Origin: Minisyncoccota bacterium | GTDB lineage: Bacteria; Patescibacteriota; Minisyncoccia; Phycocordibacterales; PALSA-1337 | Reading direction: 5' to 3' | DNA length: 64,000 nt | NCBI GenBank assembly: GCA_028713005.1 | Contig: JAQTPC010000004.1 | Span: 2,745 to 66,744 of the forward strand | Shown: piece after piece, positions 11,011-49,945 of the stretch | Layout: every line of letters begins with the position of its first letter | Numbering within the stretch: the stretch's first letter is position 1 | Program-made: the position numbers and the translations under genes | Notes under the pieces: model-generated | Told to the model about the DNA's origin: nothing | The model's input: only the letters and a program-made list of their open reading frames with translations | The model's database searches: none

Positions 11011-11164
11011 TTATCTGTCTATCAACCCAACGCACGTGCGTTGGGTTTTTATTTTTACACGCAAGCCAATAATACATCTATTTGTCCGCCCTCCTGGATT
11101 CGTGTCTCCATCGACACGCTCCACTGAGCGCCAATGACCCCAGAGGGCTTTTAGTGATTGATTG

Positions 11165-14512: not shown

Positions 14513-14635
14513 GTGTGGTTATAATGTTCATAGTTTTTTGATGTAAATGTATCTAACTCCAAAATATAAATTACCACATGGAATGGTTATAGTCAATAAA
14601 AGAAAACACCGACTAAAGCCGGCTTTTTTAATGTG

Positions 14636-14999: not shown

Positions 15000-15098
15000 G
15001 AATTTTGCACCTCAAAATTCGTGCCAAAAGACTTTTTATTGCGCGAGCAATTAAAAGTTTTTGGCCAGAATCACAGAGGTTAGTGGTATACTTAGTTT

Positions 15099-15539: not shown

Positions 15540-15565
15540 AGTGGAAGTATAGTATACTTTTACCT

Positions 15566-16645
15566 ATGAATCACGAAACAACCTGGAACCTCTATTCATC
15601 AAACGAAGAAGCATGGGCAGCTATGCTCGCCGACTGCGCACAAGCAAAAGAAAGCATCGTCCTCGAACAATACATCTTTGTGGCGGACGACTTCGGCAAA
15701 AAGCTCATAGACATCTGCACCGAACGTGCGGCCCAGGGTGTCAAAGTCCGTTTCCTCTGGGATGCAGCTGGCAGTTTCACTCTCTGGGGTTCAAATATTG
15801 CCGAAGATCTCAAAAAGAAAGGTATTGAACTTATCTTCTGGAAGACACTTATCCCTGACTATTCAAAGATAGAAAATTTTCGTGCATGGTTCTTCCGCAA
15901 TCACCGCCGTACCCTCGTCATCGATGAACGCATCGGCTATACAGGCAGTATGTGCGTCTACGAACCAATGAAAAGTTGGCGTGATACGAACCTCCGTCTC
16001 GAAGGGTCAGTTGTGGAAGAGATGAGGAATGCATTTGATCGCATGTGGGCTCGGGCCACTCGTGCACAAGCCATGCCTGAACGTATCCATGTTCGTAACC
16101 ATGAATTCCGCTACATCACCAACTATCCTGCCCCCCGCAGACGTCATATATACACAGAACTCATCGAAGCTGTCCGTTCAGCGCGCAAATATATCTATAT
16201 TACCAATCCTTATTTTGTACCGACACGCCGGCTCGTGCGCATCTTTCGTTTGGCAGCACAACGTGGTGTCGATGTACGCATCATCATCCCAGAAAATTCA
16301 AACTATTACGCTGTGGACCTCGGGGCGCGATCATATTTCAATACCTTGCTCTCTTCAGGAGTACGTATATTTCTATATTCTGGGAATATGATCCATGCAA
16401 AGACTGCAGTCATTGATGGTGAATGGGCAACAGTCGGCAGCATGAACCTCGATCGTGTGAGCCTGCTCTACAACTTTGAAGCGAACATCGTCAGTCGCAA
16501 TGGGCGATTTGCAGAGGAGCTCGCCGCGCTCTTTGTGCGTGATATGCACGATTCCAAAGAAGTCTTGTACGAGGAATGGAAGAAAAGATTCTTCATCGAA
16601 AAGATACCTGAAAAGCTGATCACTCTCGTCCGAAAGTTTTTATAA
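15566..16645 (+). CDS. Phospholipase D / cardiolipin synthase-family protein (one degenerate and one canonical HKD motif)
   Basis: Second motif HAKTAVIDGEWATVGSMNLD. First motif is H-R-R-TLVIDERIGYTGSM. Confidence 0.7.
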   Translation: MNHETTWNLYSSNEEAWAAMLADCAQAKESIVLEQYIFVADDFGKKLIDICTERAAQGVKVRFLWDAAGSFTLWGSNIAEDLKKKGIELIFWKTLIPDYSKIENFRAWFFRNHRRTLVIDERIGYTGSMCVYEPMKSWRDTNLRLEGSVVEEMRNAFDRMWARATRAQAMPERIHVRNHEFRYITNYPAPRRRHIYTELIEAVRSARKYIYITNPYFVPTRRLVRIFRLAAQRGVDVRIIIPENSNYYAVDLGARSYFNTLLSSGVRIFLYSGNMIHAKTAVIDGEWATVGSMNLDRVSLLYNFEANIVSRNGRFAEELAALFVRDMHDSKEVLYEEWKKRFFIEKIPEKLITLVRKFL

Positions 16646-16682
16646 AATAAAAAACCACCTTACATAAGGTGGTTTTTTATTT
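16646..16682. terminator. Bidirectional terminator
   Basis: AAAAACCACCTTACATAAGGTGGTTTTTT. Confidence 0.5.
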
Positions 16683-16691
16683 TTACAAATT

Positions 16692-17471
16692 TTATTGTAC
16701 CGCTACTCCTTTTACGATCTGACCGGTCTCATCGATGATTCCTTTCTGGCGAGATGCGCTACACGTATAGAATTCGCTGGTCGACTTGTTATATGCCATC
16801 ACCTGACCCTTGCCGCCAACGCCGAGGTTGAAGTTTGACTGAACGCATGGTGAGCTGCCTGCACAAAGCGACGCTGGCGCATATGCCCAAGCACTATAGC
16901 CTGCTGTACCGGTCTTCAAGTGCGTATTATCGCCACAGGTGTGACTATCGTCACTGGTGATACCTGTTGTTCTCCATGTACAAGCCTCTTTACCGAGACA
17001 GATGCGTATAACGTGGCTACGACAGTAATATTCGATGGTATCACCGCCACCACTTGAGCCCCAGTCATTGATGTTACCGTCTGAAACTGTTCCCATTCTG
17101 CCATCACTACCACACTCTTGAGCAGCTGCACTTGGAGCTGACCATTTTACTTTTCCAGTACTGTCAGCAGCAGTGAGAAAATATCCTGCTGAAACTACTG
17201 AATTTGAAGTACTTGTTGAAACGATGAGGTTTGGTGCAATCAAGTTACCGACAACACCGAGACCACCGTCAATCTGAAGTGAATCTAATTTTTCTTGGAT
17301 GGTGGTATTACCATTGAATCCAACATTGATAGGTGCGAGAACGTTATTTGAAGGTGGGTTAGCTGGAGCATTGGTCCAGTTTGCAGCTGCAGCAACAAGA
17401 GCTGAAGCGCCGAGGAATCCACCAATAATGAGACTTGAAGCTGCGAGCACTGATTGACGAGTAAGTTTCAT
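16692..17471 (-). CDS. Secreted Cys-rich hypothetical protein (signal peptide)
   Basis: N-terminal signal/TM (LAASSLIIGGFLGASALVAAAA). Multiple Cys residues and a Gly/Ser-rich composition. No family recognised. Confidence 0.45.
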   Translation of the reverse strand: MKLTRQSVLAASSLIIGGFLGASALVAAAANWTNAPANPPSNNVLAPINVGFNGNTTIQEKLDSLQIDGGLGVVGNLIAPNLIVSTSTSNSVVSAGYFLTAADSTGKVKWSAPSAAAQECGSDGRMGTVSDGNINDWGSSGGGDTIEYYCRSHVIRICLGKEACTWRTTGITSDDSHTCGDNTHLKTGTAGYSAWAYAPASLCAGSSPCVQSNFNLGVGGKGQVMAYNKSTSEFYTCSASRQKGIIDETGQIVKGVAVQ

Positions 17472-17643
17472 AAATAAATAATTTAATATGCGATTAATAG
17501 CAACAATGAATATGCATATATTATACCCTATAAAAATGACTTGGAATAGAAACCTGTTGATAAATAGTGAATAGCCGAGGCCTACCCTCGGTGATACTTG
17601 CAGAAACGTCTACTTATATGCTATAACTATAGCCTGTAATCTA

Positions 17644-18150
17644 TTGATGAAAGCACGTATAAATCACCAAATAAAAGCGCCAGAACTGCGCGTTATCACA
17701 GCCGAAGGTGAAAACCTGGGTGTAATATCGACAGACAAGGCATTGGCAGAGGCCAAGGCTCGCGGATTTGATCTCATCGAGATCTCTCCGAACGCTGTAC
17801 CTCCTGTTGCCAAGATTATGGATTATGGCAAGTATCAGTACGATGAAAAAAAGAAAGAGAAGGTCGCCAAGGCTCGTACCCAGATTAGTGAACTCAAAAG
17901 TGTTCAGGTCAAGATAGGTACTGGCGAACATGACCTCGAACTCAAGGCAAAGAAGGCTTCTGAGTGGCTCGCCGAAGGAAACCGTGTCAAAGTTGACCTC
18001 TACCTCGTCGGACGATCAAAGTTCATGGATCTCAACTTCCTCAAGGAACGCCTCGAACGCATCTTGAAACTCATCACTGTCGAATACAAGATTGCCCAGG
18101 AGCCAGTCAAAGGACCAAAAGGTCTCACTGTCTATCTTGAAAAGAAATAA
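17644..18150 (+). CDS. infC: Translation initiation factor IF-3
   Basis: INHQIKAPELRVITAEGENLGVIS...ARGFDLIEISPNA...YGKYQYDEKKK matches the IF-3 consensus. It heads the infC-rpmI-rplT operon. Confidence 0.85.
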   Translation: MMKARINHQIKAPELRVITAEGENLGVISTDKALAEAKARGFDLIEISPNAVPPVAKIMDYGKYQYDEKKKEKVAKARTQISELKSVQVKIGTGEHDLELKAKKASEWLAEGNRVKVDLYLVGRSKFMDLNFLKERLERILKLITVEYKIAQEPVKGPKGLTVYLEKK

Positions 18151-18177
18151 TCACTTTTAATTTTAACTTTTAATACC

Positions 18178-18375
18178 ATGTCTACAACAAAAACAAATAA
18201 ATCATACTTGAAGCGCATCAAGGTTACCAAGAACGGTAAACTTATCGCTCGCAAGCCTGGACAAAACCACTACAATGCAAAGGAGCGCAGTGGAACGAGC
18301 ACAAGCAAGCGCCGCACACAGGTCATCATGATGGATAACAAAGCTCGCAGTCGTTTCCTTTCAACCAGTTTCTAA
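18178..18375 (+). CDS. rpmI: 50S ribosomal protein L35
   Basis: 65 aa, basic, KTNKSYLKRIKVTKNGK...NHYN pattern, positioned between infC and rplT. Confidence 0.75.
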   Translation: MSTTKTNKSYLKRIKVTKNGKLIARKPGQNHYNAKERSGTSTSKRRTQVIMMDNKARSRFLSTSF

Positions 18376-18419
18376 GCTTCCCTATTTATTCCCTTTATTT
18401 AATTACTTAATCTACTACT

Positions 18420-18770
18420 ATGGTACGTGTCAAAAAAGGTGTCAATGCATTAAAGAATCGCCGCAATATCCTCAAGCAGACAAAGGGTTTCCGTTTCCGC
18501 CGTTCAACAAATGAAAAGGCAGCTATCGAAGCTCTCCAGCACGCTGGTGCCTATGCCTTCGCTCACCGTCGTGACAAGAAGGGCGACATGCGCCGTCTCT
18601 GGAACGTCAAGATCAACGCTGGCCTCCGTGCTATCGATGCAAAGCTCTCATACAGCAAGTGGATGGGTGCAGCAAAGAAGGCTGGTATTCTCCTCGACCG
18701 CAAGGCTCTCGCTCACCTCGCTGAGTTCAAGCCAGAAACATTTAAGAGGGTTGTAACAAGTATAAAATAA
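18420..18770 (+). CDS. rplT: 50S ribosomal protein L20
   Basis: MVRVKKGVNALKNRRNILKQTKGF...LWNVKINAG matches L20. Confidence 0.9.
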   Translation: MVRVKKGVNALKNRRNILKQTKGFRFRRSTNEKAAIEALQHAGAYAFAHRRDKKGDMRRLWNVKINAGLRAIDAKLSYSKWMGAAKKAGILLDRKALAHLAEFKPETFKRVVTSIK

Positions 18771-22625: not shown

Positions 22626-22861
22626 ATGTATTAAATTAATTAGCCACAGTATAGCAGATGAGCTTCATTTACCTAAATCATACTCATTGACTGAAAAACT
22701 ACCCGTAGTGTATGCTTACGGTACAACAAAATAGTTATTCAGAGTGTGGCGAGAGAACTAGCTCAATGACCCACCAGCAACTCTTCGAAAGAAGTAAGTG
22801 CTCAATCTAGCCCGAAAGGGAAAGATGCTATATCTCGTATTAAAACGATATAAGAATAGTA

Positions 22862-22892
22862 TACGCTTTCCATTCGGAAGGCGTTTTGTTTT
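22862..22892 (+). terminator. Leader-embedded terminator/attenuator hairpin just upstream of the PLP-enzyme gene
   Basis: CGCTTTCC-ATTC-GGAAGGCG followed by TTTTGTTTT. Upstream hairpins with GAAA tetraloops are present. Confidence 0.4.
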
Positions 22893-24134
22893 ATGGTTCG
22901 AAGCCATATTTATTATGTAACATATATAACTATGTCTACAAAAACAAAAGACTCTTTTGAAAACAAGAGTCGGTTCGGGTTCGGAACATTAGCAATCCAT
23001 GCTGGCGAAACACCAGATGCAGAAACAGGTGCAGTTGCTCCAGTTATCGTCAGATCGAAAACCTTTGCCCAAAAACGTTTTGGCAAGGAGAGCGAATATC
23101 AGTATTCACGTGGTAAAAATCCCACGCGCGACAAGCTCATAGAGAAATTAGAAGCGCTCGAAGGTGGTGGTACCGCAACTGTATTCGGTTCAGGATTGGC
23201 AGCTGAGGCGGCATTCTTTCTCACTCTCTCCCCTGGTGATCATGTCCTTCTTTGTCAGGAGGTATATGGAGGAACATTTAGATTACTCGATGGCTTTCTT
23301 TCCCGTTTTGGTATTACTTACGATTTCGCTGATTTTTCTGCAGAAGAATCTATTTGGAAGGGCATAAAGCCAAATACCAAGTACCTCTTCGTAGAAACGC
23401 CGACCAATCCCTCTCTCCATATCATCGACCTTGCGCTTGTTGCGAAAGTATCAAAGAAAGCCTGTATACCGTTCGTTGTTGATGCCACATTCTCTCCTCC
23501 GTGCACCACCAAAGCATTTGAGTACGGCGCTGAGACCGTCATCCATAGTCTGAGCAAATATATCGCTGGACATAATGACATACTCGGCGGTGCTGTTATA
23601 ACGAAAAATACGAAATTAGCTGAGCGCATAAATTTTCTTCATCGAACGCTCGGAGCAGTTCTCTCTCCTGATGAGTGCTATCGGGTACTCCAAGGAGTGA
23701 AGACACTTGAGCTTCGTTGGAAGAGAGTAAGTGAAACGGCATTGACTGTCGCCCAATTCCTCAAAAAACAGAAAGTGATCACAAAGGTTTTTTATCCCGG
23801 CCTACTTTCACATGCTCAACATTCAATAGCTAAAAAACAACATCAAAATGGCTTCGGTGGCGTAGTTTCTTTTGAGCTACGCGAGCATAGTTTCAAAAAA
23901 CTAAAGAAATTTGTCGACACAGTTCGCGCCCATAGCCCTATCATCTATGGCGAAAGCCTCGCTAGTCCAGAAACAATCCTCGCATATCCTCCACTCATGA
24001 GCCATAAGAGTCTACCGAAAAATGTACGCGAATCACTTGGCATCACTGATGGATTCTTTCGGCTATCGGTTGGCTTTGAGGATGTAAAAGATATCTTGGA
24101 GGGATTGAGGAAAGGGCTTGCTGTACTTAATTAA
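22893..24134 (+). CDS. Cys/Met-metabolism PLP-dependent enzyme (cystathionine gamma-synthase / beta-lyase / methionine gamma-lyase family)
   Basis: HAGE..., YSRGKNPTRDKLIE, and the PLP-lysine motif HSLSKYIAGHNDILGG. The start may instead be ATG 22932. Confidence 0.8.
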   Translation: MVRSHIYYVTYITMSTKTKDSFENKSRFGFGTLAIHAGETPDAETGAVAPVIVRSKTFAQKRFGKESEYQYSRGKNPTRDKLIEKLEALEGGGTATVFGSGLAAEAAFFLTLSPGDHVLLCQEVYGGTFRLLDGFLSRFGITYDFADFSAEESIWKGIKPNTKYLFVETPTNPSLHIIDLALVAKVSKKACIPFVVDATFSPPCTTKAFEYGAETVIHSLSKYIAGHNDILGGAVITKNTKLAERINFLHRTLGAVLSPDECYRVLQGVKTLELRWKRVSETALTVAQFLKKQKVITKVFYPGLLSHAQHSIAKKQHQNGFGGVVSFELREHSFKKLKKFVDTVRAHSPIIYGESLASPETILAYPPLMSHKSLPKNVRESLGITDGFFRLSVGFEDVKDILEGLRKGLAVLN

Positions 24135-27811: not shown

Positions 27812-28198
27812 TTACCAAATCTTAAAGAGGATTTCTCCGCCAAGTTTGAGCTTTTTTGCATCGACGTCAGTCATGATACCCTTTGAAGTAGTGAAGATGG
27901 TGTTACCAAAACCACTACGGAATGAGCGAATGTCTGCTGCTTTCTGATAAAGACGGCGTGATGGCTTTGAGATACGTTCTACACCGTTGATACGTGGTAC
28001 GCCATCAAAATAGACGAGACCAAGCTCAATCTCACGCTTTGTCTTACTCTTTTCTACAGAAGAGATATAGCCGGCCTTCTTGAGAACATGAGCAACATTC
28101 TCAGAGAGCTTCGATGCGATAACAGTGACTGATGCTTTCTTTGCATCACTGCTATTCTTGATACGTGTTATGAGGTCTGAAATAGGGTCTGTTACCAT
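27812..28198 (-). CDS. rpsH: 30S ribosomal protein S8
   Basis: [13 protein letters not shown] motif. Confidence 0.9.
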
Positions 28199-28377
28199 GA
28201 TGATTTCTTTATGCCTGGGATAATACCTTCATTGGCGAATTCACGGAAACAAATACGGCAGAGGTCAAAATCACGCATATAACCGTGCTTACGACCACAA
28301 CGGAAACAACGACGAACAACACGCGAAGCAAACTTCGGTGTTCTCTTTGAGCGTGCAATGACTGCTTTGGTTGCCAT
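28192..28377 (-). CDS. rpsN: 30S ribosomal protein S14 (zinc-binding type Z)
   Basis: 61 aa, [23 protein letters not shown] (C4 zinc ribbon). Confidence 0.85.
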
Positions 28378-28504
28378 AATTTGTATTAGGTAAAATGAGT
28401 GAAATTTTGAAAATAAAATTTCGATTGGTTAGCTTAGCCATTAATTTAGGCGTTTGCTTCCAATCACTGCCTCAGAACGAGCTTTTATTGAGGTAGGTAT
28501 GATA

Positions 28505-28547
28505 CTAGCAGATGATAGGAAATGAGTCAAATAAAAACCACCCTGCT
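28505..28547 (-). terminator. Rho-independent terminator after the NlpC/P60 gene
   Basis: Minus strand reads CCACCCCACTCATAGAGCAGGGTGG followed by TTTTTATTT. Confidence 0.5.
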
Positions 28548-28943
28548 CTATGAGTGGGGTGGCTGAGATGCTAATGCGTATATTTCGAGGAAATCAATTT
28601 TAGAAGTAACTGTCACTTTACATCCAAAAAACCGTGAACAATGTATCAACTCATTTGGCGAAGCAATTATAGCCATATGTGTCCAAATGAGATTTGAGGT
28701 ATTTGCTCTCCTTTTGAAAAACACACTATGACCAACTGGCATGAGATTAAACTCTTCCGGCGAGAGATGAAAATCTGTAGGCGGATACCCGGCATCAGTA
28801 AAAGCGGGCATTTCGATACCAGCTTCACGATACACTTCAATAACGAAATGAACGCAATGGAATGTATGCCAATCAAAAGGTTTTCCAAGATAGTTATGTG
28901 CAATTGTAACGATAGAGTTCGACAATGATGGTGAAAGAATCAT
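28548..28943 (-). CDS. NlpC/P60-family (papain-like) peptidase/amidase, small standalone
   Basis: The catalytic Cys context FHCVHFVIEVY and His context THMAII...ELIHCS are consistent with the C40 Cys-His-His architecture. Confidence 0.5.
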   Translation of the reverse strand: MILSPSLSNSIVTIAHNYLGKPFDWHTFHCVHFVIEVYREAGIEMPAFTDAGYPPTDFHLSPEEFNLMPVGHSVFFKRRANTSNLIWTHMAIIASPNELIHCSRFFGCKVTVTSKIDFLEIYALASQPPHS

Positions 28944-29137
28944 ACTTTCCTTTCTCTTTGATTATTTAATGAACAAAAAACCTGCCGATTAAGGCAGGTT
29001 TAGTACTTACACGCGTAAATACCTACCTGCCCTTAATGAGAGAAGCATAAACAAAACCTGACCACGTCTGAATGTGTTTATTTATAAGCATAGGTAGAAA
29101 TTATCACACAAATTACATATTTGCCAGGATTATTACT

Positions 29138-30220
29138 TTAGATATTAGTACTATTTAACGATGACGACATTATCTTACATGAAGCTGTAGATCCATCGTC
29201 AAACGCAACACCATCTCCGCTCACGGCAGCACTGTCATAACAATAACTTGAGCCAGAAGAATTTAAAACTGCAGAGATAGCATACGTCTCTCCTTCCGCA
29301 TAACAGGTAACAACATTTTTATCTTTTAACTGAACAAATACTGAAGCAAATGATGCGTCCGCAAACATTCCTTGTGAACAGCTTCGAGTCTTTGAATATG
29401 TATTATTATCTCCATAATAAACTTCTGCTTGAGTTCTTAACTGACTAAGCACTGTTCTGACTTGAGCATCTTGTCCTTTTTGGCGAGCAGAACTCAGTGC
29501 AACAAGTACAACCGATGACATGATACCGAATATTGCAATCATTGGGAGAATGCAAGCGATGATAATACCTACGACTAGACCAGCAGTATGAGGTTTAGCT
29601 GGATCTTTATATATCACAACACTATGTGCGAACATATCATGCAATCCTTGTTTCTTTGCCGTAAATCCAGCAATAATAAAACCGATACAAAGAATAATTT
29701 GAGAAACAAACTTGCCAAGAGTTTCGCGTAACAAAACTTTACCGAATGAAAGTTTTTCAAAGCTATCTGACTTAACAGTAATACCAACCAGCATTTTTCC
29801 AAGGGTCGCGCCGGAATAATATGTCATCAAAGTGAAATATGTCCATGTCAGAAGCAATGAGACAACATAAGATAATGCCCCGGCAGTCTGTGTAGCAGAT
29901 CCTGGGTTTTTTATTAAAATCAATCCTAAAAGAAACTGCGTCATGGCAATCGGTATAGCAATAATCAAGCTATCAACCATGATCGCGACAAATCTAACCC
30001 AAAAACCAGCATATTTTACATTTACAGGAGGAGTTGGAACAGTACCTGTAGGTGCAACTGGATTGTGAGCTGGCTGATTGAGTTCGAGAGTTGCAAAAGC
30101 ATCATTTACATCGACAAGATTCCATCCACCAGCACTTACGAGATTTTGTTGTATAGACTCTTTTGTTAAACCTTGTGCTATCTGTTGTTTGACGTACTCA
30201 AGCAATTGCGTATTTGCCAT
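29138..30220 (-). CDS. Membrane protein: conserved N-terminal helical domain + RDD-family domain + C-terminal type IV pilin-like region
   Basis: The N-terminus is paralogous to the next gene. RDD core runs RFVAIMVDS...YYSGATLGKMLVGITV. The C-terminal hydrophobic helix is followed by SSARQKGQDAQVRTVLSQLRTQAEVYYGDNNTY (pilin-like) and a Cys pair. Confidence 0.5.
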   Translation of the reverse strand: MANTQLLEYVKQQIAQGLTKESIQQNLVSAGGWNLVDVNDAFATLELNQPAHNPVAPTGTVPTPPVNVKYAGFWVRFVAIMVDSLIIAIPIAMTQFLLGLILIKNPGSATQTAGALSYVVSLLLTWTYFTLMTYYSGATLGKMLVGITVKSDSFEKLSFGKVLLRETLGKFVSQIILCIGFIIAGFTAKKQGLHDMFAHSVVIYKDPAKPHTAGLVVGIIIACILPMIAIFGIMSSVVLVALSSARQKGQDAQVRTVLSQLRTQAEVYYGDNNTYSKTRSCSQGMFADASFASVFVQLKDKNVVTCYAEGETYAISAVLNSSGSSYCYDSAAVSGDGVAFDDGSTASCKIMSSSLNSTNI

Positions 30221-30264
30221 AAAAATATATTAAGACTTGTAATTAGTGCCCTGATAATAGCACA

Positions 30265-31467
30265 TTATTTAAATGTAAAACTTGAGACAATACTCTCAGC
30301 ATCCTTTATCAAACTTAAGCCTCTATCTAGACTTGATTTGAATACAACACTGTATAGTGTGCCTCCATGCACTGCACTATATTGTAATATAGCCTCTCTT
30401 GCCGACTGATCTGAACCTGTACTGCTAACTGTAAAGGCTATCACAACCGCCTTTTCACCACTCAATGTACTTGAACTTACTTTACCCAATACTGCACCTG
30501 CAAATTCTGATTTTATAATCGTATCTACATTTTCAGAAGTGATGATTTGGTCAACCGAATCGATCAGTCCGGATGTATCAGGTATAGGTGTTATAGCAAC
30601 ACACATGATATAGCCTGAAGCAGAACTCGAGGCTTGCACACCCTGTCCCCCATTTGAGGTTACACTTGGTTTCCAACCTCTAGGTAGAGTAAACGAGTAC
30701 AATGCATTATCAACAATGCTCGATTTAGATTTTAAAGGAGATACCTGGGTATTCACTACTGGCACTTGACTGGTCTTTTTTGTAAACCTATCAGTAACTG
30801 ATTGAACTAGGTTTGGTTGGAAAAAATAAACATATGCACCAGCGCCGACAAAAGCACATATAATAAACACGAAAATCAAAATAAGAATACCTGAACGACG
30901 TGGTGAAGATGATTGCTGCGGAACAACAAACGCTTTTGATGCCACAGTTTGTGGCATCGAAGAAAAGCTTGGTGGTGGAGTAAATGTTCGTGGTGGTGTT
31001 GGAATTGGACTTGTCTGATATTGTTGAGCAAATGTTGCAGGTGGTGGCTTGGGAAAGCTAGCAATCGGTTGACTTGTCTGAACAGGATTTGATGGATACT
31101 GTGATACGGATGATACTGGTGGTTTTGGTGTTGAGATAGGTGTAGGAGTAATCTTGATTTCAATAGGTGGTTTAGGTGCGATCGGAGGTGCAGTGAATTG
31201 TGGTTTTGGAGCTATAACTGGCGTTGATACGGGCACAGAAACTACTGGTATTACTGGGGCTGGAGTTGTGGGCACAAAAACTTTTGGACTTATTGTCGCT
31301 GTTGGCGTTTGACTAGTAACTACACTATGACCGAGTGCTATAAACGCCTCTTTGATATCAACTGCACTCCAACCACCTTCCGCAATAAGTTTTTGTTGTA
31401 CAGCTTCTGCACTCGAACCATGTGCCAGTTTATATGAAATGTAATCAAGTAATTGTTTATTTGTCAT
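30265..31467 (-). CDS. Single-pass membrane protein with same N-terminal domain, Pro-rich linker and extracellular C-terminal domain
   Basis: MTNKQLLDYISYKLAHGSSAEAVQQKLIAEGGWSAVDIKEAF is about 50% identical to the N-terminus of 29138..30220. It has a PT-rich spacer and a TM segment ILILIFVFIICAFVGAGAYVYFF. Confidence 0.45.
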   Translation of the reverse strand: MTNKQLLDYISYKLAHGSSAEAVQQKLIAEGGWSAVDIKEAFIALGHSVVTSQTPTATISPKVFVPTTPAPVIPVVSVPVSTPVIAPKPQFTAPPIAPKPPIEIKITPTPISTPKPPVSSVSQYPSNPVQTSQPIASFPKPPPATFAQQYQTSPIPTPPRTFTPPPSFSSMPQTVASKAFVVPQQSSSPRRSGILILIFVFIICAFVGAGAYVYFFQPNLVQSVTDRFTKKTSQVPVVNTQVSPLKSKSSIVDNALYSFTLPRGWKPSVTSNGGQGVQASSSASGYIMCVAITPIPDTSGLIDSVDQIITSENVDTIIKSEFAGAVLGKVSSSTLSGEKAVVIAFTVSSTGSDQSAREAILQYSAVHGGTLYSVVFKSSLDRGLSLIKDAESIVSSFTFK

Positions 31468-31533
31468 AGGAATATACTAAATATACACAAAGTATATCCT
31501 AGTACTGACACAATAACAGCTCCCACCTGTTGA

Positions 31534-33378
31534 TTACAGAAATAACCTCACCAACCTGATCTCCTCAAAGGTGAAACTACTGCCGAGGATATTTTTGACC
31601 GGCGAAAGTGCTCTACCACCCCCCTCTTGCATGCCCACTGCATGAAACGCCATAGAAATCTTTTTGAAACGTGTAACGGGGAGTGCATCACGAAGATGTG
31701 AAATATTCCATGTAGGATCTTCTCTTTTCTCATGTTCTATATGATTGAGGATAGTATCAAAAGATAGACCGCGCTCCGTTGCTACTTCACGGACAGATTT
31801 TCCCATGTCGATGAGGCTGCGAGTCACCTCTGCAGTAGGTATCTTTGGTTTTTTACCTTTTCTGGTTCGTTTAACCGCCTTTGCTCGATCTGCAAAATCT
31901 TCATCAGACTCACCGTCTTCTTTTGTCACCGGATCAGGGCCAAGGAATTTCTTTTGTCGAACATTGAGATCATCAGCTGATAACCCCATAAAATGGGCTT
32001 GGGCTTTTTTTGATTGTTCACGAAAGTGCTTATCGAATTCATATGCTTCCGGATGGATATGCAGGGCCATATCATTGAGTCCTGCCAAGGTAAGGCCGAG
32101 GAGCGACCGTACACGCGAGAGCGCTACATAACCCATACCCTTCTCAAAAGAACGTGACAGGTCGATATGTGCAGCGTCGAGAGACATGCCCTGACTCTTA
32201 TGGATGGTTATAGCCCATGCGAGGCGTAGAGGATACTGTTCAATCTCAGCCAACGTCCTATCTCCCTCATCGACACGCCAGCTTTCGAGTGGTACATCTA
32301 TCTCTCTACCATCAAGCGTTTTGACGACGATACTGTCATAGGTACATTCAGCGACAATGCCACGTGTGCCGTTGGCATATCCAACTTCCCAATTATTTTT
32401 TACAAACATGACTTGTGCGCCAACTTTAAGCCTGAGAACCTCAGGCGCCAAGCAAGATTTCTTTAAACCTTCAATGAGCTTTTTGTTCCCGTGTGAAATC
32501 ATCTTATACTCCAAGAATCCCCCAGGAACTGCATTGAGCTCGCGATCATTTTCGGCATCAACATCGCTATTGTGAGAATAGAGTCGTGTTGCTTTTATGT
32601 TTTCAGTTAAAATCGTAGGAATTTCAATAGGAATATCTGTTTCGCTTTTCTTTTTAACTTCATCTTCATCACCGATAAAGACCACGTCTTCTTCAGAACC
32701 CATGTGCTCATCAGTTAAAAACTCTATGCCATCATCCTCTTTTTTATTACGAGAAATAATACGGCCATTTAATAAGTCCATCATATCTGTTGAGAGCGAC
32801 TGGGCACGAATACCATTTAAAATTCCAACATACTCCTTGTCCAACTGACGATGTTGCTCTTCGAGATAACAGACAACAAAGTTAGCCTCCTTCCAAGCCT
32901 TTGAATGATACGCGAAATACGCATCAGGCTCGCCCCCACGAGATATTGGAGGCAATTGGAAAAAATCTCCACACACCACAACCTGTAAGCCTCCGAATGG
33001 CGCGTCTGACTTACGAATCTTCTTCACGATTTCATTTATGAGATCCAAACGAAAATGATGGAGCATGGATATCTCATCGATGATAAGAACTTTGGCCGCT
33101 TCTATCTTTGTCTTTACATAACTCTTTTCTGATATTTCCTCGAGATCTTGTTCTGAGAGAGTGTCGCGTACGCCGACACCAGACCATGAGTGGATCGTGA
33201 CGCCGCCCATATGGGTCGCTGCGATACCAGTAGAAGCTGTGATACCAACGGGTATTTCTCGTTCACGTAAGCACTGTAGATATTCTCGAAGAACATAGGT
33301 TTTGCCGCTGCCCGCTGGTCCGGTCAGAAAAACGTTCGCTCCTGTTTTGAGGATATTTAATGCTTCAGCTTGGGTCAT
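31534..33378 (-). CDS. Pif1/RecD-family 5'-3' DNA helicase with C-terminal HTH-like extension
   Basis: Walker A GPAGSGKTY, Walker B LIIDEISM, the GDFFQLPPI motif, and C-terminal ITIHKSQGMSLD...YVALSRV. Confidence 0.75.
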   Translation of the reverse strand: MTQAEALNILKTGANVFLTGPAGSGKTYVLREYLQCLREREIPVGITASTGIAATHMGGVTIHSWSGVGVRDTLSEQDLEEISEKSYVKTKIEAAKVLIIDEISMLHHFRLDLINEIVKKIRKSDAPFGGLQVVVCGDFFQLPPISRGGEPDAYFAYHSKAWKEANFVVCYLEEQHRQLDKEYVGILNGIRAQSLSTDMMDLLNGRIISRNKKEDDGIEFLTDEHMGSEEDVVFIGDEDEVKKKSETDIPIEIPTILTENIKATRLYSHNSDVDAENDRELNAVPGGFLEYKMISHGNKKLIEGLKKSCLAPEVLRLKVGAQVMFVKNNWEVGYANGTRGIVAECTYDSIVVKTLDGREIDVPLESWRVDEGDRTLAEIEQYPLRLAWAITIHKSQGMSLDAAHIDLSRSFEKGMGYVALSRVRSLLGLTLAGLNDMALHIHPEAYEFDKHFREQSKKAQAHFMGLSADDLNVRQKKFLGPDPVTKEDGESDEDFADRAKAVKRTRKGKKPKIPTAEVTRSLIDMGKSVREVATERGLSFDTILNHIEHEKREDPTWNISHLRDALPVTRFKKISMAFHAVGMQEGGGRALSPVKNILGSSFTFEEIRLVRLFL

Positions 33379-33437
33379 GGGTGCTAGTATATCACCTCAA
33401 ATAAAAAATCCCGACACAACCTGTGTCGGGAGCGATA

Positions 33438-34607
33438 CTAGCAATTCTTCCAAAGCGAGCTCAGGCTCGGATTGCGTGCCAACGAATAATTTGAATAATC
33501 GAGATCATCCGTCACATCTCGCGATTTTCCGAGAAAATCCGGAAGCGAGACTTGGTCGTTCGCATCCGTCAGCTCGATCTCGAGCATAACCAACCCTTGA
33601 TGTAGGCCTAAGAATACATCCAGCTCAAAATACTGATCTTTGTAAACAAAGGTTTTACGAGTCTTTGTGACAGGACAGCAGTCGGGCTTGGCGAATCTCA
33701 GCAACCGAGTGAACTCTGAAGCAGTAATGATGCTTTCAGTTTCATAACGCCCGAAACTACCAGAAAATCCTGGCAGCGTCTTTTTGATCGTCCGATAGCA
33801 CGTCGTTATCCCGCGCCAGGTGCGCATGCGGATTCGTTCATCCCCTTCTGGAGTCTTGATGTAATACTGAACGATTGAGACGTTCTCGTGAGGAACCGAA
33901 ATCAGAGGCTCATTTTTAAGATGGAACTTCCGTTCAATCTCAATCGGCACTGGGATACCGAGAATATGAGTGATCGCTGCAACAGACTTCCGCACCTTAG
34001 TCTGCAGGTCGATGAAACCACCGTTACCATCTGTATTACTGATAACGACGAGATGAGGATGATGGATCCACGAACGTAACGTCCTTTCATCAAGCTCTTT
34101 CGCTTCCTCGACTGTTTCTCGGCGAGCAATGTTATTGGCGCATGTGTAAAGATGTGGCGCATCATATGCCAAACTGCGCAGATAGATGACGCCCTTATAC
34201 GGAACTTCCCCAAGCAAAGCGGCATCATAGCCCAACTTTTCGGCCATTTTAAAGAATACATCGGGTGAGATATAAGCCGAACCATCGAGACGACCTCGAT
34301 CGGTCAATATAACCTTGTGTTTTGCCTTGATACACTTCATCGCTTGGTGGTAGCGATATTCGCGTTCGACGGAAGCGAGAAGTATCTGCGTTTGGAAATC
34401 TTCTGGTGAACCGAAATCACCGAAAGAAAGCCCGTGAGTCGCAAATTCAGTTGCGATCTCAGGAACAACACAGGCATGAACCCCTTTGTCTTGAAGATGA
34501 CGGGTAGACTGCGCTAAGACGGTTGATTTTCCAGCACAAGCGCCACCTGTTTCAGCAATTGTCGTAATGTCACTTAATGCTAATGGATGAACGATTTGGT
34601 TGAGCAT
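33438..34607 (-). CDS. Fusion protein: AAA_28/NadR-like P-loop nucleotide kinase domain + CYTH (triphosphate tunnel metalloenzyme) domain
   Basis: N-terminal P-loop ETGGACAGKST, with a C-terminal domain opening on the CYTH hallmark EIERKF (ExExK). Confidence 0.55.
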   Translation of the reverse strand: MLNQIVHPLALSDITTIAETGGACAGKSTVLAQSTRHLQDKGVHACVVPEIATEFATHGLSFGDFGSPEDFQTQILLASVEREYRYHQAMKCIKAKHKVILTDRGRLDGSAYISPDVFFKMAEKLGYDAALLGEVPYKGVIYLRSLAYDAPHLYTCANNIARRETVEEAKELDERTLRSWIHHPHLVVISNTDGNGGFIDLQTKVRKSVAAITHILGIPVPIEIERKFHLKNEPLISVPHENVSIVQYYIKTPEGDERIRMRTWRGITTCYRTIKKTLPGFSGSFGRYETESIITASEFTRLLRFAKPDCCPVTKTRKTFVYKDQYFELDVFLGLHQGLVMLEIELTDANDQVSLPDFLGKSRDVTDDLDYSNYSLARNPSLSSLWKNC

Positions 34608-34705
34608 ACTACGATCCTTTCGTTGTGAGGGTTTATTTCAAAAAACTAAGACTGATCTGAGACTACTACAGCAGTACGTACCTGTAAACCCTGAACTTGA
34701 GAAAC

Positions 34706-34735
34706 AAAAAAACCACTCAAGGTGGTTTTTTCTTA
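34706..34735. terminator. Terminator after rplE
   Basis: AAAAAACCAC-TCAAG-GTGGTTTTTT. Confidence 0.5.
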
Positions 34736-34750
34736 CTTAAAAAAGTGAAA

Positions 34751-35323
34751 CTATTTCTTTCCTTTCTTGTCATCCTCCTTCTTGAGTGGGAGACCGAGGT
34801 ATTCGAGGAAACCGAGAGTCTGTGCTCTGTCACTTGAAGTTGTGACGAGAGTGATAGCAAGACCGAAAACATCCTTGAGGTCTTCATCTGATGTTTCTGG
34901 GAAGATAGTGTGCTCCTTGATACCGATCGTATAGTTGCCCATAGCGTCAACAGAGTTGCGTGAGAGACCGCGGAAGTCCTTTGTACGAGGGAGAGCGATG
35001 TTGATCAAACGATCCATGAAATCAAACATGCGTGGACCACGGAGAGTAATCTGATAACCGAGCGGATCGCCAACACGAGTCTTGAAAGTAGCGATGGCTT
35101 TCTTTGCGGCACGGGGAGCTGGCTTTTGACCAGTAATGCGTGCGAGACGCTCTGCAATGATCTCGATCTTTTTCTTATCCTTCACAGAACCGAAACTACT
35201 ACTGACAACCACCTTCTTGAGCTGTGGAGCCTGCATAGCGTTTTTGATATTCAACGTATCTTTGAGAGCTTTGAATGATTCTTTGTTGAGTTCGAGAACT
35301 GTTTTTTTGTGAGTAGTAGTCAT
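34751..35323 (-). CDS. rplE: 50S ribosomal protein L5
   Basis: L5 consensus throughout (PRMFDFMDRLINIALPR...). Confidence 0.9.
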   Translation of the reverse strand: MTTTHKKTVLELNKESFKALKDTLNIKNAMQAPQLKKVVVSSSFGSVKDKKKIEIIAERLARITGQKPAPRAAKKAIATFKTRVGDPLGYQITLRGPRMFDFMDRLINIALPRTKDFRGLSRNSVDAMGNYTIGIKEHTIFPETSDEDLKDVFGLAITLVTTSSDRAQTLGFLEYLGLPLKKEDDKKGKK

Positions 35324-38347: not shown

Positions 38348-38548
38348 GGAATAAGTAAATGTAGAATTAAAAAAGCTCAAATGAGCGTGAGAGGTATAGT
38401 AGCAGAGCCAGATTTCGAAGTCAAGCATTTAGGGCTTATTTTCATAAATATTAGAAAATGTGGCGGACTTTCGTAGAGCTTTAATAGAAGTAAGATAATA
38501 AAAAACCGGACTTCCCTGTGAAGGAGGTCCGGGTGTGCGAAATGAAGA

Positions 38549-38908
38549 TTAATCATTGTAACTGAATTTTCCAAAGCACAAACATTCAGATGTAAAACCA
38601 ATATTAATTTGATCAAATGATACTCCAGCAAACTGCTTTCGCACACCTTGCAAAAAGTGTTCGAAAACACAGCCTGGTTGTAGTGGGTCCACTGGATGAT
38701 TGTTCAGTGGCGGTATTTGCTCGTCTGTGAGTGGTGCATGATAATCGCAGGGCTCAAAATATAGATAGTAGTTTTCAATGCGCATAGTTAAGGCACAAAA
38801 GTGATTACCCTTGTAACTCCTTTGAGCGAACTCGACGATTTCAAAAACTGTAGGCCCTGAATCAAGACCTACATATATTAACATCGGAAATTCTTCATCT
38901 GCATTCAT
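38549..38908 (-). CDS. Hypothetical protein (119 aa) inserted between rplB and rpsS
   Basis: ORF with natural-looking composition and no family recognised. The L2 terminator precedes it. Confidence 0.4.
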   Translation of the reverse strand: MNADEEFPMLIYVGLDSGPTVFEIVEFAQRSYKGNHFCALTMRIENYYLYFEPCDYHAPLTDEQIPPLNNHPVDPLQPGCVFEHFLQGVRKQFAGVSFDQINIGFTSECLCFGKFSYND

Positions 38909-39002
38909 ATCGAAATCCTTTCTGTTAAGGTTCCTTGGTTTAAGTCACTGTAATCTGGTACCAATATTAAGTCAAACACTCAGTAAGTGATTTTTCGAAA
39001 GC

Positions 39003-39040
39003 AAAAAACACCCTTTCGGGTGCCTTTTGCTTTTACCTTA
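39003..39040 (-). terminator. Rho-independent terminator immediately downstream of rplB
   Basis: Minus strand reads GCAAAAGGCACCC-GAAA-GGGTG-TTTTTTGCTTT. Confidence 0.55.
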
Positions 39041-43600: not shown

Positions 43601-45373
43601 CTAATACGATGGCGTAGGAGCACACGAGTAACCAGTTGGGCACGGAGGTAAACCTATTGTGAAGTAGGCATCACTATAATCGTACGCTTGCATGGTTACT
43701 CCTTTGTTGAGGGTCACGTAAAGCCGGTACAAGCCCGGTGCTGTAAAATATGGCAACGAAACATTGACTAACAAACTGAAATTTTTAATTCCAGGCGATG
43801 CTACATGCTGCGTTGACATAAGTGTCTGCTTATTCAACGAATCTACAGCGTAAACATATACAGTATCACCAATCAGAGCAGAATCCCCTGTTACATTTAG
43901 TGTAACTGTCTTGTATGTTGATGTTTGCCACTGCTCCCCACCGTTTGGCGAGATAATATTGATATCCGGTACATTTGATGTTTGAGTTGAACTAATCGTA
44001 AACACATTGTCGCTTGAGTCACAGTTAGTTGTGCCCGTCTCGCAAATTTGAACAGTATATTGTCCATCGGGCATTGTTTGTACTATTCCTGAATAATTGA
44101 GAGCGGTGCCTACATTCCAACTATATGAATTTTGGTTAATCGGGATATTCGTAGCTATAGTATATGGCGCATAGGCAATAGCTGGACAAAATTGAGTAGT
44201 ACACACAAATTTCTGCATAATCTTGAGATCGGCATATGTGGCACGGAAATAGTAAGGAGATGACCATGTTATGTTTTGCGTCGTTCCTCGCACCCATGCT
44301 TCCCCGCCATTTGGAGAGATAATTTTGAGTGATCCGGCCGTTGTTCCACTAGTTACAACTATAGTTGAAGTAGTTTGAACCTGCTGACCAGAACTATTCA
44401 TAACTATAACCGTAACTGTGTATGTCCCCGGATTTATATATGAATGTGTAAATGTAGTCATTTGAGAAAACGTTGCCAGAGGATCAGCTACGCCTGCAGG
44501 CACATAATATGATGGCTCATCGCCCCAGCGAATACGATAACTCAACGTACCATTCAAGGGATCTGTAGCGCGCACAGTCCATGTCCCTGTTTGTCCAACT
44601 GCGAGAGTAGTTGGCGCATCGACACCGTTTATTACTGGAGCGTTACCTGTAGTAACCGGGTTGGATGTAATCGTAAAGTTTGAATCACTTTCAGCACACG
44701 TTGATCCATCTGCTGGGCAAATTTGTACTTTATATTGACCTTCTGTGATAGCACTTGAATCAAGTGGACACGATGAATCATCAATTGATGTGAGACACCA
44801 ATTTGCTCGTGCTGTACCCACGTTCCACGAGTATGATTTTGCACTCAAATTAACTCCTTTTGCAATAGTAAGAGGCGCACGAACCATAACCATACATTTA
44901 ATAGGTTGCCCTGGTTGTGCGCAGGCTGGAGTTGGGAATACAAGTTTAATATCTCCTTTTTGAGCCAGAACATTCGCTGAACCACTCCAGGTAATGTTTT
45001 GTATAGTACCCTTTACCCATGTTTCGCCACCATTTGGAGAAGTTACCTTAAATGAAGCGTTGTTCGGATTGCTATGACCATTGATATAGCCACGCGTCAT
45101 CGGTCCAAAATATCCAAATGCAGGAAAGCCTAATGACAGTTGATAGCGTATTAACGCCAACTTTGTTTGTGAACCAAAATATCCTTTGACTGCAACACCT
45201 GAACTGACAGATGGAATATCAAAACCATTTGATATCAGCCATGTCTGAAGATTTGTAACATCTGACCCAGAACTACCAACTGATAGATCATTTGAAAAGA
45301 CGAAGTTCTGCGCATGAGCATTCGCAAAGACAACTGTACACGCAATGATAGTTAAGATAATGTATTTTTTCAT
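43601..45373 (-). CDS. Secreted surface protein: N-terminal peptidoglycan-binding-like domain + three SPNGGE-W beta-sandwich repeats
   Basis: Signal peptide, PG_binding_1-like GSSGSDVTNLQTWLISNGF...GYFGSQTKLAL, and three repeats containing SPNGGE(T/A/Q)W..G....ITW. Confidence 0.55.
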   Translation of the reverse strand: MKKYIILTIIACTVVFANAHAQNFVFSNDLSVGSSGSDVTNLQTWLISNGFDIPSVSSGVAVKGYFGSQTKLALIRYQLSLGFPAFGYFGPMTRGYINGHSNPNNASFKVTSPNGGETWVKGTIQNITWSGSANVLAQKGDIKLVFPTPACAQPGQPIKCMVMVRAPLTIAKGVNLSAKSYSWNVGTARANWCLTSIDDSSCPLDSSAITEGQYKVQICPADGSTCAESDSNFTITSNPVTTGNAPVINGVDAPTTLAVGQTGTWTVRATDPLNGTLSYRIRWGDEPSYYVPAGVADPLATFSQMTTFTHSYINPGTYTVTVIVMNSSGQQVQTTSTIVVTSGTTAGSLKIISPNGGEAWVRGTTQNITWSSPYYFRATYADLKIMQKFVCTTQFCPAIAYAPYTIATNIPINQNSYSWNVGTALNYSGIVQTMPDGQYTVQICETGTTNCDSSDNVFTISSTQTSNVPDINIISPNGGEQWQTSTYKTVTLNVTGDSALIGDTVYVYAVDSLNKQTLMSTQHVASPGIKNFSLLVNVSLPYFTAPGLYRLYVTLNKGVTMQAYDYSDAYFTIGLPPCPTGYSCAPTPSY

Positions 45374-45451
45374 ATATTAATGATGACGGATGAGATCTTT
45401 AATCCTTTCATGGTATAACAAAACCGACCAAACGTACATTTATATACGTAA

Positions 45452-45485
45452 AAGCCCGAAACATAGTGTTTCGGGCTTTTTTTGA
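45452..45485. terminator. Bidirectional terminator
   Basis: AAAAGCCCGAAACA-TAGTG-TTTCGGGCTTTTTTT. Confidence 0.5.
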
Positions 45486-45509
45486 TGTATATAAGTAATA
45501 TATATTGAA

Positions 45510-46061
45510 TTACATAATAGTTGTCGACGTAGATACTGGTGGAAGTGGCGGGTTCTCAACTTGAGGAGGCAATTTACGAGTACTTGTGGCTGTTTTATTC
45601 TTAATTTCTTCACGAATAATCTTGCCTACAGTTGATGTCCCCATCTGTGCGCCATTGATAAGCTTTCGTGCTATATCAAGCTTTTCTTGTGGAATAATCC
45701 CTGCTTTGAAAAGAATAGTGACGACTTGTTCAGGTGTGAGACGATGTTCCTGTTCCTTTTTTTCATCATCAAGCTTATCTTTCATCGGGCGTGTTGATGA
45801 CGCAAATGGCATCATCGGACGAGTACTACTACCTACATCTCTTCTCACTGATGTACTCGCAACTCTATCCTTCACTTCAACCTTAAATATATTGCCGAAG
45901 CCAAATCCTGGACGTCCCTGCTTAAAAACATCCCCTGCTGCAGCTTGCTGTTGTGTATATGCCATACCACTTGATACAGCCTCAAGTACAGCTGGATTTG
46001 TGAAGGTGAGAATCGAGAGACCGCCAAGAACAAGAACGTATTTGAAGTTTTTTCCAAACAT
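45510..46061 (-). CDS. Secreted hypothetical protein
   Basis: N-terminal signal peptide. No family recognised. Confidence 0.4.
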   Translation of the reverse strand: MFGKNFKYVLVLGGLSILTFTNPAVLEAVSSGMAYTQQQAAAGDVFKQGRPGFGFGNIFKVEVKDRVASTSVRRDVGSSTRPMMPFASSTRPMKDKLDDEKKEQEHRLTPEQVVTILFKAGIIPQEKLDIARKLINGAQMGTSTVGKIIREEIKNKTATSTRKLPPQVENPPLPPVSTSTTIM

Positions 46062-46074
46062 AGATAATAATTAA

Positions 46075-49380: not shown

Positions 49381-49470
49381 GCACGTGCCTGAATGGCACG
49401 TGCTTGGGTAGATAGGAACAGTATAGCGTGATTAAAGATTCACGCAAACTAAGTTATCCCCAATCGAGAT

Positions 49471-49905: not shown

Positions 49906-49945
49906 ATAAATATGAAGACAATGATAATAGTCATAATGTAACACA

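Follow-up and report, generated by a model that had tools for sequence, protein, structure and literature searches.

We analyzed a 64,000-nucleotide stretch (the window) of contig JAQTPC010000004.1 from a Minisyncoccota bacterium, in which a block of ~6.4 kb separates rplE (ribosomal protein L5) from rpsN (S14) within the str-S10-spc ribosomal-protein cluster. This block is probably the current content of a clade-wide variable slot, positioned at an internal transcription boundary in the ribosomal cluster of the Paceibacteria (Parcubacteria). The rplE-rpsN junction would accordingly be a hotspot of gene turnover at an internal operon break across the clade; the genes that it holds appear ordinary and their location unusual, a reading that we consider well favored. 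A preliminary description of this DNA, which had drawn attention to the genes of the block, missed that the junction rather than this cargo is the unusual feature. What we observe directly is the anatomy of the locus, its terminators, the variability of the junction and the independence of the five genes among relatives, and a conserved promoter and leader in front of rpsN.

Gene content between rplE and rpsN

The ribosomal-protein cluster lies on the minus strand and runs from rpsL (~54.0 kb) to secY (24.2 kb). The flanks of the block keep the normal S10-spc order, with L30 missing between rpsE and rplO; L30 is missing in bacteria of the Candidate Phyla Radiation (CPR) as a rule (PMC9297842). 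The left flank of the slot is rplE, the last gene of the upstream ribosomal unit, and the right flank is rpsN, the first gene of the downstream unit. An open reading frame (ORF) listing combined with Pfam searches confirmed five co-oriented minus-strand genes, and no other sizeable ORF, between the two. In the order from rplE to rpsN, they encode a P-loop kinase::CYTH fusion, a Pif1-family helicase, a membrane protein (Mem2), an RDD-domain membrane protein and an NlpC/P60-like hydrolase (NlpC; Table 1).

Relatives were collected by scanning the L5 protein of the window against one genome per species (GTDB representatives), which gave 80 loci, and the window proteins were mapped onto these. All are from Paceibacteria/Parcubacteria metagenome-assembled genomes (MAGs), with L5 identities of 59-97%. 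The same five genes occur between rplE and rpsN in none of the 80 (0/80); the block is therefore accessory and not lineage-wide, as had been proposed from the sequence. The gap between rplE and rpsN has a median length of 2000 bp (range 161-9478 bp) and exceeds 500 bp in 47 of the 54 loci spanned on one contig. There are 8 further loci in which rpsN is not within 10 kb of rplE, and 18 contigs end inside the gap. By comparison, median lengths at the other nine junctions between rpsQ and secY are 18-98 bp, with a lone case above 500 bp (rplO-secY, 1371 bp).

Clustering of the gap ORFs (279 of the related loci, together with the five proteins of the window) gave 199 clusters, including 166 singletons; the ORFs of the related loci occur on both strands (170 plus, 109 minus). 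Recurrent cargo includes an extracytoplasmic function (ECF) sigma factor with a DUF5667 protein and a fibronectin type III (FN3) protein (10-14 loci), Pif1 (11 loci and the window), PemK/MazF toxins, a YgjP-like peptidase, a PolB-like exonuclease and a cupin. Both the ‘adjacent’ rplE-rpsN state and the varied cargoes are scattered over a rough guide tree, which is based on four short ribosomal proteins from MAGs, one per species.

DNA homology between the window and its closest relatives (L001, L003 and L004) is collinear through rplE and resumes at position 28516, with differing content in between. The slot of L001 holds Pif1, a 47%-identical Mem2, a MazF-like gene and a Mur-ligase gene; that of L004 holds Pif1 and a Mem2 homologue only; and that of L003 holds Pif1, a 48%-identical NlpC homologue and a fragment resembling the major facilitator superfamily (MFS). 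The three have Pif1 in common, plus one or another neighbor. Because relatives share only some of the modules, and homologues of kinase::CYTH and NlpC sit in other contexts, the five genes are not a cassette and do not travel together.

Four predicted intrinsic terminators, each of which folds far better than shuffled controls, lie after rplE, kinase::CYTH, the RDD gene and NlpC (Table 1). The preliminary description had the block bracketed by terminators and took it for one autonomous transcription unit. Bracketing terminators do exist at both ends, although the range then given for the second (28505-28547) is mostly rpsN promoter and not hairpin. The single unit does not hold: four terminators divide the block, two of them internal to it (those after kinase::CYTH and the RDD gene), and it is thus not one transcription unit but, as predicted from sequence, at least three. 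The predicted division is kinase::CYTH; Pif1-Mem2-RDD; a small structured RNA element; and NlpC. The rplE terminator is kept in L001, L003, L004, L005 and L081, and L081 has the same hairpin at the kinase::CYTH terminator. A terminator-like site within 110 nt past the rplE stop codon was found in 42/78 related loci, compared to 0-9% for other genes of the cluster.

The rplB-rpsS junction is a second variable slot of the same design (Table 1). In the window it contains a single gene (orf119), for which we found no family match and only one weak homologue (in L003). Across 45 related loci the junction has a median length of 1431 bp and is longer than 500 bp in 34; the 88 ORFs that it contains form 45 clusters, and 18 loci have a recurrent histidine kinase. 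The third break point, a minor one, is rplP-rpmC, with gaps of 0.95-2.2 kb in 6/73 related loci; the window has no such gap.

Promoter and structured leader of the rpsN unit

The downstream ribosomal unit begins with a promoter of the pattern TTGAC-N-TGnTAnnAT. This strong pattern has two sites in the 64-kb window, one before rpsN and one before rpsS. Some 130 nt ahead of rpsN are conserved independently of the upstream content, also where rplE and rpsN are adjacent, and contain this promoter and a structured 5’ leader. The predicted structure comprises a 5’ hairpin of the form ACCU(C/U)...(G/A)AGG (ACCUC..GAGG in the window), an invariant stem (GAUUGG-A-AGC / GCU-AA-CCAAUC) with an apical hairpin that varies in sequence and length (28467-28410), and then a U-rich tract.

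Searching 1.25 Mb with a covariance model made from ten sequences gave 89 matches, one per locus and all just upstream of rpsN; the sole other match was marginal (E = 0.009). In total, the leader is present at ~90 loci, including L001-L065 and L088-L160. An exact-motif scan of metagenome contigs returned 73 contigs, with rpsN 10-109 nt downstream in 64 of them and several of the remaining 9 cut by the contig end. Compensatory change is seen at 4/4 pairs of the apical helix, with a score of 0.108 vs. 0.052 for shuffled controls and 0/500 shuffles reaching the observed value, in a leader alignment that was itself fitted to the model. In the 5’ hairpin, C-G and U-A pairs exchange (crude count). 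The main stem is invariant on both strands and so is uninformative for covariation.

In Escherichia coli, the spc operon is autoregulated by S8 via an rRNA-mimic site at the start of rplE. The rpsN leader is similar in being a structured 5’ element before a unit in which rpsH (S8) is the second gene, and its internal-loop helix, invariant on both strands, has the pattern expected of a protein-binding site. It differs from the E. coli S8 site in its position (before rpsN, not rplE), its sequence and the lineage in which it occurs. Its 5’-AAG / CU-3’ element shows, by eye, a partial likeness to the core of E. coli 16S helix 21, where S8 binds. The window itself contains no 16S rRNA. We regard the leader as a candidate for a new ribosomal-protein leader or attenuator; S8 or S14 as its ligand is a guess.

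No Rfam family matched the leader in a scan of the window at gathering thresholds, which reported only tmRNA, tRNAs and an S-adenosylmethionine (SAM) riboswitch, or in a permissive scan of the block, which gave RsaE (E = 0.43) on the wrong strand. A leader peptide within this region was considered and rejected, the putative start codon not being conserved. Bacterial ribosomal-protein leaders have been treated by Fu et al. 2013 (PMC3616713) and by Eckert & Weinberg 2020 (PMC7247131); the rpsN leader is not among the 20 leaders of the latter study, none of which is upstream of rpsN and which does not mention Parcubacteria. Our literature search found no described rplE-rpsN break or rpsN leader in CPR bacteria, an absence that is no proof of novelty. 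Both this leader and the RNA element upstream of NlpC (see below) look undescribed.

Cargo genes and other features of the window

Table 1. Positions of the genes, signals and RNA elements of the two slots in the window.
Feature	Position	Strand	Description
rpsN (short Zn-type S14)	28192-28377	minus	Pfam Ribosomal_S14 2e-21; overlaps rpsH
rpsN structured 5’ leader	28378-28495	minus	predicted from alignment and RNAalifold; covariance model
rpsN-unit promoter	28502-28530	minus	TTGACT-N17-TAGTAT, TG before -10 hexamer; strong sequence pattern
Terminator after NlpC	28538-28562	minus	-12.9 kcal/mol, z -4.3; right end of cargo
NlpC/P60-like papain-fold hydrolase	28548-28943	minus	131 aa; PF00877 (NLPC_P60) 17.4 bits, below the 23-bit threshold
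Candidate structured RNA	28972-29096	minus	~125 nt; minimum free energy -35.4 kcal/mol, z -3.4; three hairpins
Terminator after RDD gene	28978-29001	minus	hairpin and U-tract, -14.2 kcal/mol
RDD membrane protein	29138-30220	minus	360 aa; Pfam RDD 4e-24, PF06271 85.9 bits (threshold 24.1)
Mem2	30265-31467	minus	400 aa; N-terminal 45-aa domain, Pro-rich linker, one transmembrane helix, PsbP-like outer domain
Pif1-family superfamily 1B (SF1B) helicase	31534-33378	minus	614 aa; PIF1 1e-38, Pif1_2B 1e-10, C-terminal HTH_40 3e-13
Terminator after kinase::CYTH	33409-33431	minus	10-bp stem and U-tract, -16.8 kcal/mol, z -5.0
P-loop kinase::CYTH fusion	33438-34607	minus	389 aa; Pfam AAA_28 5e-13, CYTH 1e-5
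Terminator after rplE	34706-34732	minus	hairpin and U-tract, -11 kcal/mol, z -2.9
rplE (L5)	34751-35323	minus	Pfam Ribosomal_L5 and L5_C; 97% identical to L001
Second slot, rplB-rpsS	38396-39034	minus	rplB terminator 39034-38996, orf119, rpsS promoter 38424-38396
orf119	38549-38908	minus	own promoter-like site and terminator 38533-38495

Profile searches upheld the domain calls of the preliminary description for Pif1, RDD, CYTH and the P-loop. The NlpC/P60 call fell below the Pfam threshold; it gains some support from a weak match to PDB 7CFL (E = 0.018), in which ‘FHC’ aligns with the catalytic ‘FDC’, and ‘THMAI’ and ‘LIHCS’ with the His positions. Two further claims of that description stood in part. 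The two membrane proteins had been called paralogous, and their similarity (44% identity) proves to be confined to the 45-residue N-terminal domain; the tail of the RDD protein had been called pilin-like, and it does resemble the pilin alpha-1 helix but is missing the prepilin cleavage motif.

The kinase::CYTH gene forms a predicted transcription unit of its own. The protein matches PF13521 (AAA_28) with 49.9 bits and CYTH with 25.9 bits (threshold 23.2), and in 39 homologues the Walker A motif (GGPCAGKT) and E223-x-E225-x-K227 are invariant or nearly so; the tunnel residues R258/R260/R262, K275, E289/E291, K315/R317, E328/D330 and E343/E345 are likewise kept. In an AlphaFold model (predicted local distance difference test, pLDDT, 89.6), the C-terminal half matches the triphosphate tunnel metalloenzymes (TTM) NeuTTM (2FBL/3TYP), SaTTM and AtTTM3 with probability 1.0, indicating a beta-barrel tunnel fold, and the folds matched by the N-terminal half are those of dCK, Dm-dNK and thymidylate kinases (TM-score up to 0.69 of the target). 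Sequence identity between the CYTH half and the stand-alone triphosphatase NeuTTM is 28-30%, and the fold matches. As in Arabidopsis TTM1/TTM2 (PDB 7Z67), a kinase is followed by a CYTH domain, with ExExK and Walker A kept. Unlike the plant proteins, in which the kinase half is uridine-kinase-like, the fusion has a dCK/dNK/thymidylate-kinase-like half and is without a C-terminal membrane anchor; it is 9% identical to 7Z67 and its domains are packed differently (root-mean-square deviation 20 A). On the basis of the model, the whole protein can be described as an analogue of the kinase+TTM module of Arabidopsis TTM1. It is most likely an enzyme of nucleotide or polyphosphate metabolism, a role assigned through its families.

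With respect to L001, the kinase::CYTH gene is a clean 1357-bp indel in the DNA alignment, where 39 bp of L001 stand against window positions 34751-33395; the indel falls precisely between the terminator of rplE and the start of Pif1. In L081, an 88%-identical kinase::CYTH directly follows rplE, and the next feature is an ORF6N-like sequence (recognized by eye) instead of Pif1. More than 120 distant homologues, full-length and of Patescibacteria type throughout, are found upstream of infC-rpmI-rplT (L084, L085), near adk-map (L087), near YgjP and Pif1 (L082, L086) and elsewhere, mostly without Pif1, RDD or NlpC neighbors. The family is common in Patescibacteria and its neighbors are varied. 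In L084 and L085 the gene is flanked by smpB/M13-peptidase on one side and infC-rpmI-rplT on the other; at 14633-18770 the window shows this smpB...infC-rplT neighborhood too, without kinase::CYTH. This suggests movement of the gene between two translation-gene neighborhoods.

The Pif1 protein scores 133 bits against PF05970 and 41.5 bits against PF21530, with a visible Walker A motif (GPAGSGKT). It has the same domains as other bacterial Pif1-family SF1B helicases and is, to judge from these, an ordinary member with a predicted role in unwinding; only its recurrent site directly after rplE in one subclade is notable. Homologues are present in 11/80 loci, usually as the first gene past rplE, and Pif1 is the sole cargo gene common to the whole closest subclade. 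Its counterparts in L001 and L004 are 96% identical to it.

Mem2 and the RDD protein are probably envelope proteins with a common cytoplasmic N-terminal domain, as their families suggest. Mem2 has a weak Pfam PsbP match (25 bits) when its C-terminal half is queried alone, and it is just 45-47% identical in L001 and L004, though the flanks are 84-93% identical at the DNA level. In the RDD protein the 45-aa N-terminal domain is followed by the RDD domain and a C-terminal pilin-like module. By phmmer, this module is similar to the alpha-1 helix of PilA (6XXD, E = 0.0011), geopilin and GspG. Like type IV pilins and pseudopilins, it has an alpha-1 helix followed by a head region. However, the match begins at pilin residue 6, ~220 residues into the protein and behind the RDD domain, so that a class III signal peptide, a cleavage site between G and F/M, and Glu5 are all missing; unlike true pilins, the protein can be neither processed nor assembled as one.

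The NlpC protein is probably a small papain-fold amidase, judging by its family. It is without a signal peptide and has a predicted transcription unit to itself. The family is tiny (9 proteins), with unrelated contexts elsewhere; one homologue (P0123) bears a precomputed NLPC_P60 match. The structured RNA element lies in the 195-nt spacer before the gene, has its own promoter-like site and ends in the terminator that follows the RDD gene. It is 91% identical in L001 (14242-14371) and 81% identical in L003 (12422-12578), though the neighbors differ, and its core recurs upstream of the NlpC homologue in L169 (~540-565). It is thus found directly upstream of NlpC-like genes (the window, L003 and, as the core only, L169) or of a Mur-ligase gene (L001), and is missing upstream of 3/4 further NlpC homologues. 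The element had no Rfam match, and a 16-mer scan of viral contigs for further copies gave only chance matches. It is a candidate small RNA or attenuator-type leader of NlpC and cell-wall genes.

Ribosomal-protein genes in the region 24000-54000 are without a Shine-Dalgarno sequence and have a common start context of the TAATWT-ACTAC-ATG type. In the cargo genes NlpC, kinase::CYTH and orf119, by contrast, the start is preceded at 7-8 nt by a canonical Shine-Dalgarno sequence, AAAGGA (AAGGA core). This suggests two classes of translation-initiation signal within one genome. Leaderless mRNAs had been considered for Pif1, Mem2 and RDD, which have -10 boxes 6-7 nt before the ATG. That reading was dropped as unproven because rplN, rplP, rplW and rplB, which are internal to tight ribosomal operons, have the same TAATWT-N6-ATG context in front of them; a general context for initiation without Shine-Dalgarno is the likelier explanation.

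Other usual adjacencies of the cluster are interrupted elsewhere in the window. The genes fusA and tuf are normally adjacent in the str operon; here four minus-strand genes (590, 183, 1101 and 157 aa; products probably secreted or membrane-bound) lie between them at 43601-49944, in a stretch with the strongest tetranucleotide deviation in the window (z ~3, 46-49 kb). The secY-adk adjacency is interrupted on the opposite (plus) strand at 22732-24134 by a SAM riboswitch (22732-22830, Rfam 50.6 bits) and a 413-aa ORF that looks, by eye, like a pyridoxal-phosphate-dependent enzyme of Cys/Met metabolism. ARAGORN predicted a tRNA-Ile with a TAT anticodon at 11164-11238; such tRNAs are uncommon in bacteria, most of which decode AUA via a modified CAT anticodon.

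Origin of the slot and known parallels

We propose that the spc operon has been cut after rplE, where the terminator would end the upstream unit, and that transcription of rpsN-rpsH-...-secY starts afresh from a strong promoter and structured leader of its own. Any insertion, deletion or translocation between terminator and promoter would then do no polar damage to ribosomal-protein expression, and for this reason the gap could gather and turn over unrelated genes, most of which seem to bring their own terminator. In this genome the slot would hold a kinase::CYTH unit, Pif1 with two envelope proteins, and an NlpC-like hydrolase behind a structured RNA element. The boundary probably came first and permitted the turnover, which may have proceeded via ordinary rearrangement and homologous recombination using the highly conserved ribosomal flanks.

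Several points weigh against this account. The boundary-first order has as its sole basis the seven ‘adjacent’ genomes that already bear the promoter and leader, and the MAG set and four-protein tree would fit differing numbers of independent gains and losses. The unit division is a prediction; read-through of the terminators may occur, and any promoters of Pif1, Mem2 and RDD are putative. Throughout one subclade Pif1 comes directly after rplE, and it lies near kinase::CYTH in the unrelated L082, so it may be functionally linked to the rplE-adjacent position or to its neighbors. Finally, the base composition of the Mem2/RDD/NlpC half also fits a recent foreign acquisition, which is possible but unproven.

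A more far-reaching version of the slot model, which we regard as a tentative possibility, is that rplE-rpsN and rplB-rpsS are long-lived landing pads. Following DNA uptake, the ribosomal homology arms would let self-contained modules, mostly with their own terminator, swap between divergent species by homologous recombination, and the rpsN leader, as a new autoregulatory element with S8 or S14 as its probable ligand, would shield the expression of ribosomal genes from upstream inserts. If true, these landing pads would be a route of gene exchange for a lineage poor in classical mobile elements, and would place cargo beside the most highly expressed genes.

It is unlikely that the block, or its rpsN-proximal half (Mem2, RDD and NlpC), was acquired recently as a mobile or foreign island, for instance as the remnant of a phage or integrative element. 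The composition of that half does point in this direction: GC content at third codon positions is 0.24-0.32 in these three genes (Mem2, 0.24) vs. 0.40-0.49 elsewhere, and the tetranucleotide deviation reaches z ~2.3 over 28.5-31.5 kb. The Shine-Dalgarno sequences of NlpC, kinase::CYTH and orf119, unlike the start contexts of ribosomal genes, the MazF-type toxins and the ORF6N-like gene in the same slot of relatives, and the tiny, patchy NlpC family are also consistent with an island. However, Pif1 and kinase::CYTH are host-like in composition, and the fusA-tuf stretch deviates more than the block does. The divergence of Pif1 keeps pace with that of the ribosomal genes on its flanks (84.5% vs. 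86-93% DNA identity to L001). Pfam and NCBIfam scans of the five proteins revealed no integrase, transposase or relaxase; there are no meaningful flanking direct or inverted repeats, and the nearest tRNA is 17 kb away. A 27-nt ‘repeat’ (D1), considered as an attachment repeat, is the start-codon context common to RDD, Mem2 and rplE. A phage origin was likewise not supported, as no relatives turned up when viral contigs were scanned with the Pif1, RDD and NlpC proteins, a weak negative given that such scans detect close relatives only.

The preliminary description had favored a single undescribed system, in which envelope and pilin-like proteins, a helicase and a triphosphate-tunnel enzyme form one functional cassette for defense, competence or host interaction. 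We consider this highly improbable, and the lack of co-occurrence has already largely refuted it: no locus among the 80 has the whole set, Pif1 alone is kept throughout the closest relatives, kinase::CYTH homologues usually lack Pif1, RDD and NlpC, and NlpC homologues sit in unrelated contexts. The five genes are co-oriented and close together, yet two internal terminators split them, and the two membrane proteins are similar over one short domain only. A Pif1 and a kinase::CYTH homologue do lie 2.4 kb apart in one unrelated contig (L082). SF1 helicases are known in several defense systems, but in a scan against PADLOC-DB the helicase gave only generic, partial RecD/UvrD-like matches and the other four proteins gave none. 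An assembly or binning artefact, i.e., a chimeric contig joining the two halves of the cluster via unrelated DNA, has a practically negligible probability; the source is a metagenome-assembled contig and many related contigs end inside the junction, but independent assemblies (L001, L003, L004, L005, L081) are collinear over both borders (rplE-terminator-Pif1...promoter-rpsN) and 54 species genomes span the junction on one contig.

For the five genes the outcome is deflationary, since they appear as ordinary, unrelated genes rather than a new system. The wider interest lies in the cluster that surrounds them. The S10-spc cluster counts as the most stable part of a bacterial genome, and its genes are standard markers for trees of CPR/Patescibacteria and for MAG curation. 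A large patescibacterial clade breaks it at fixed points (rplE-rpsN and rplB-rpsS, and in this genome also fusA-tuf and secY-adk). These points carry fast-changing cargo and contigs often end there, so contiguity of the marker block is not to be assumed. The breaks offer a natural system for studying how an ancient operon becomes subdivided, and a pointer to regulatory RNAs that may take over once translational coupling across a break is lost.

Gene-flux hotspots between core genes, or flexible genomic islets, are known in bacterial chromosomes. The slot resembles them in having the same core flanks around differing, often singleton cargo, in the tendency of contigs to break there, and in cargo that includes toxins, regulators and envelope proteins. 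Unlike these hotspots, it lies inside the S10-spc cluster and has no integrase, tRNA or attachment site; its borders are a terminator on one side and a conserved promoter and leader on the other, and it varies between species of a class, not only between strains.

Within the ribosomal clusters, the closest parallel is in the sections of Brandis (PMC8046335) on Gammaproteobacteria and Bacilli, which describe a few genes inserted at operon borders, followed by relaxed synteny and, in some cases, full disconnection of the two sides. This last pattern fits the eight loci in which rpsN is not within 10 kb of rplE. The same source reports in situ swaps of rpsN isoforms, so the neighborhood of rpsN is known to be labile. 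The insertions in those sections are mostly between operons (rpoBC-str, str-S10), few in number and phylogenetically stable, whereas the break described here is inside what is the spc operon of other bacteria and its cargo differs in nearly every species. What looks new here is the location and regular design of a core-gene hotspot inside the ribosomal cluster: a terminator, variable cargo, and a conserved promoter with an uncatalogued leader.

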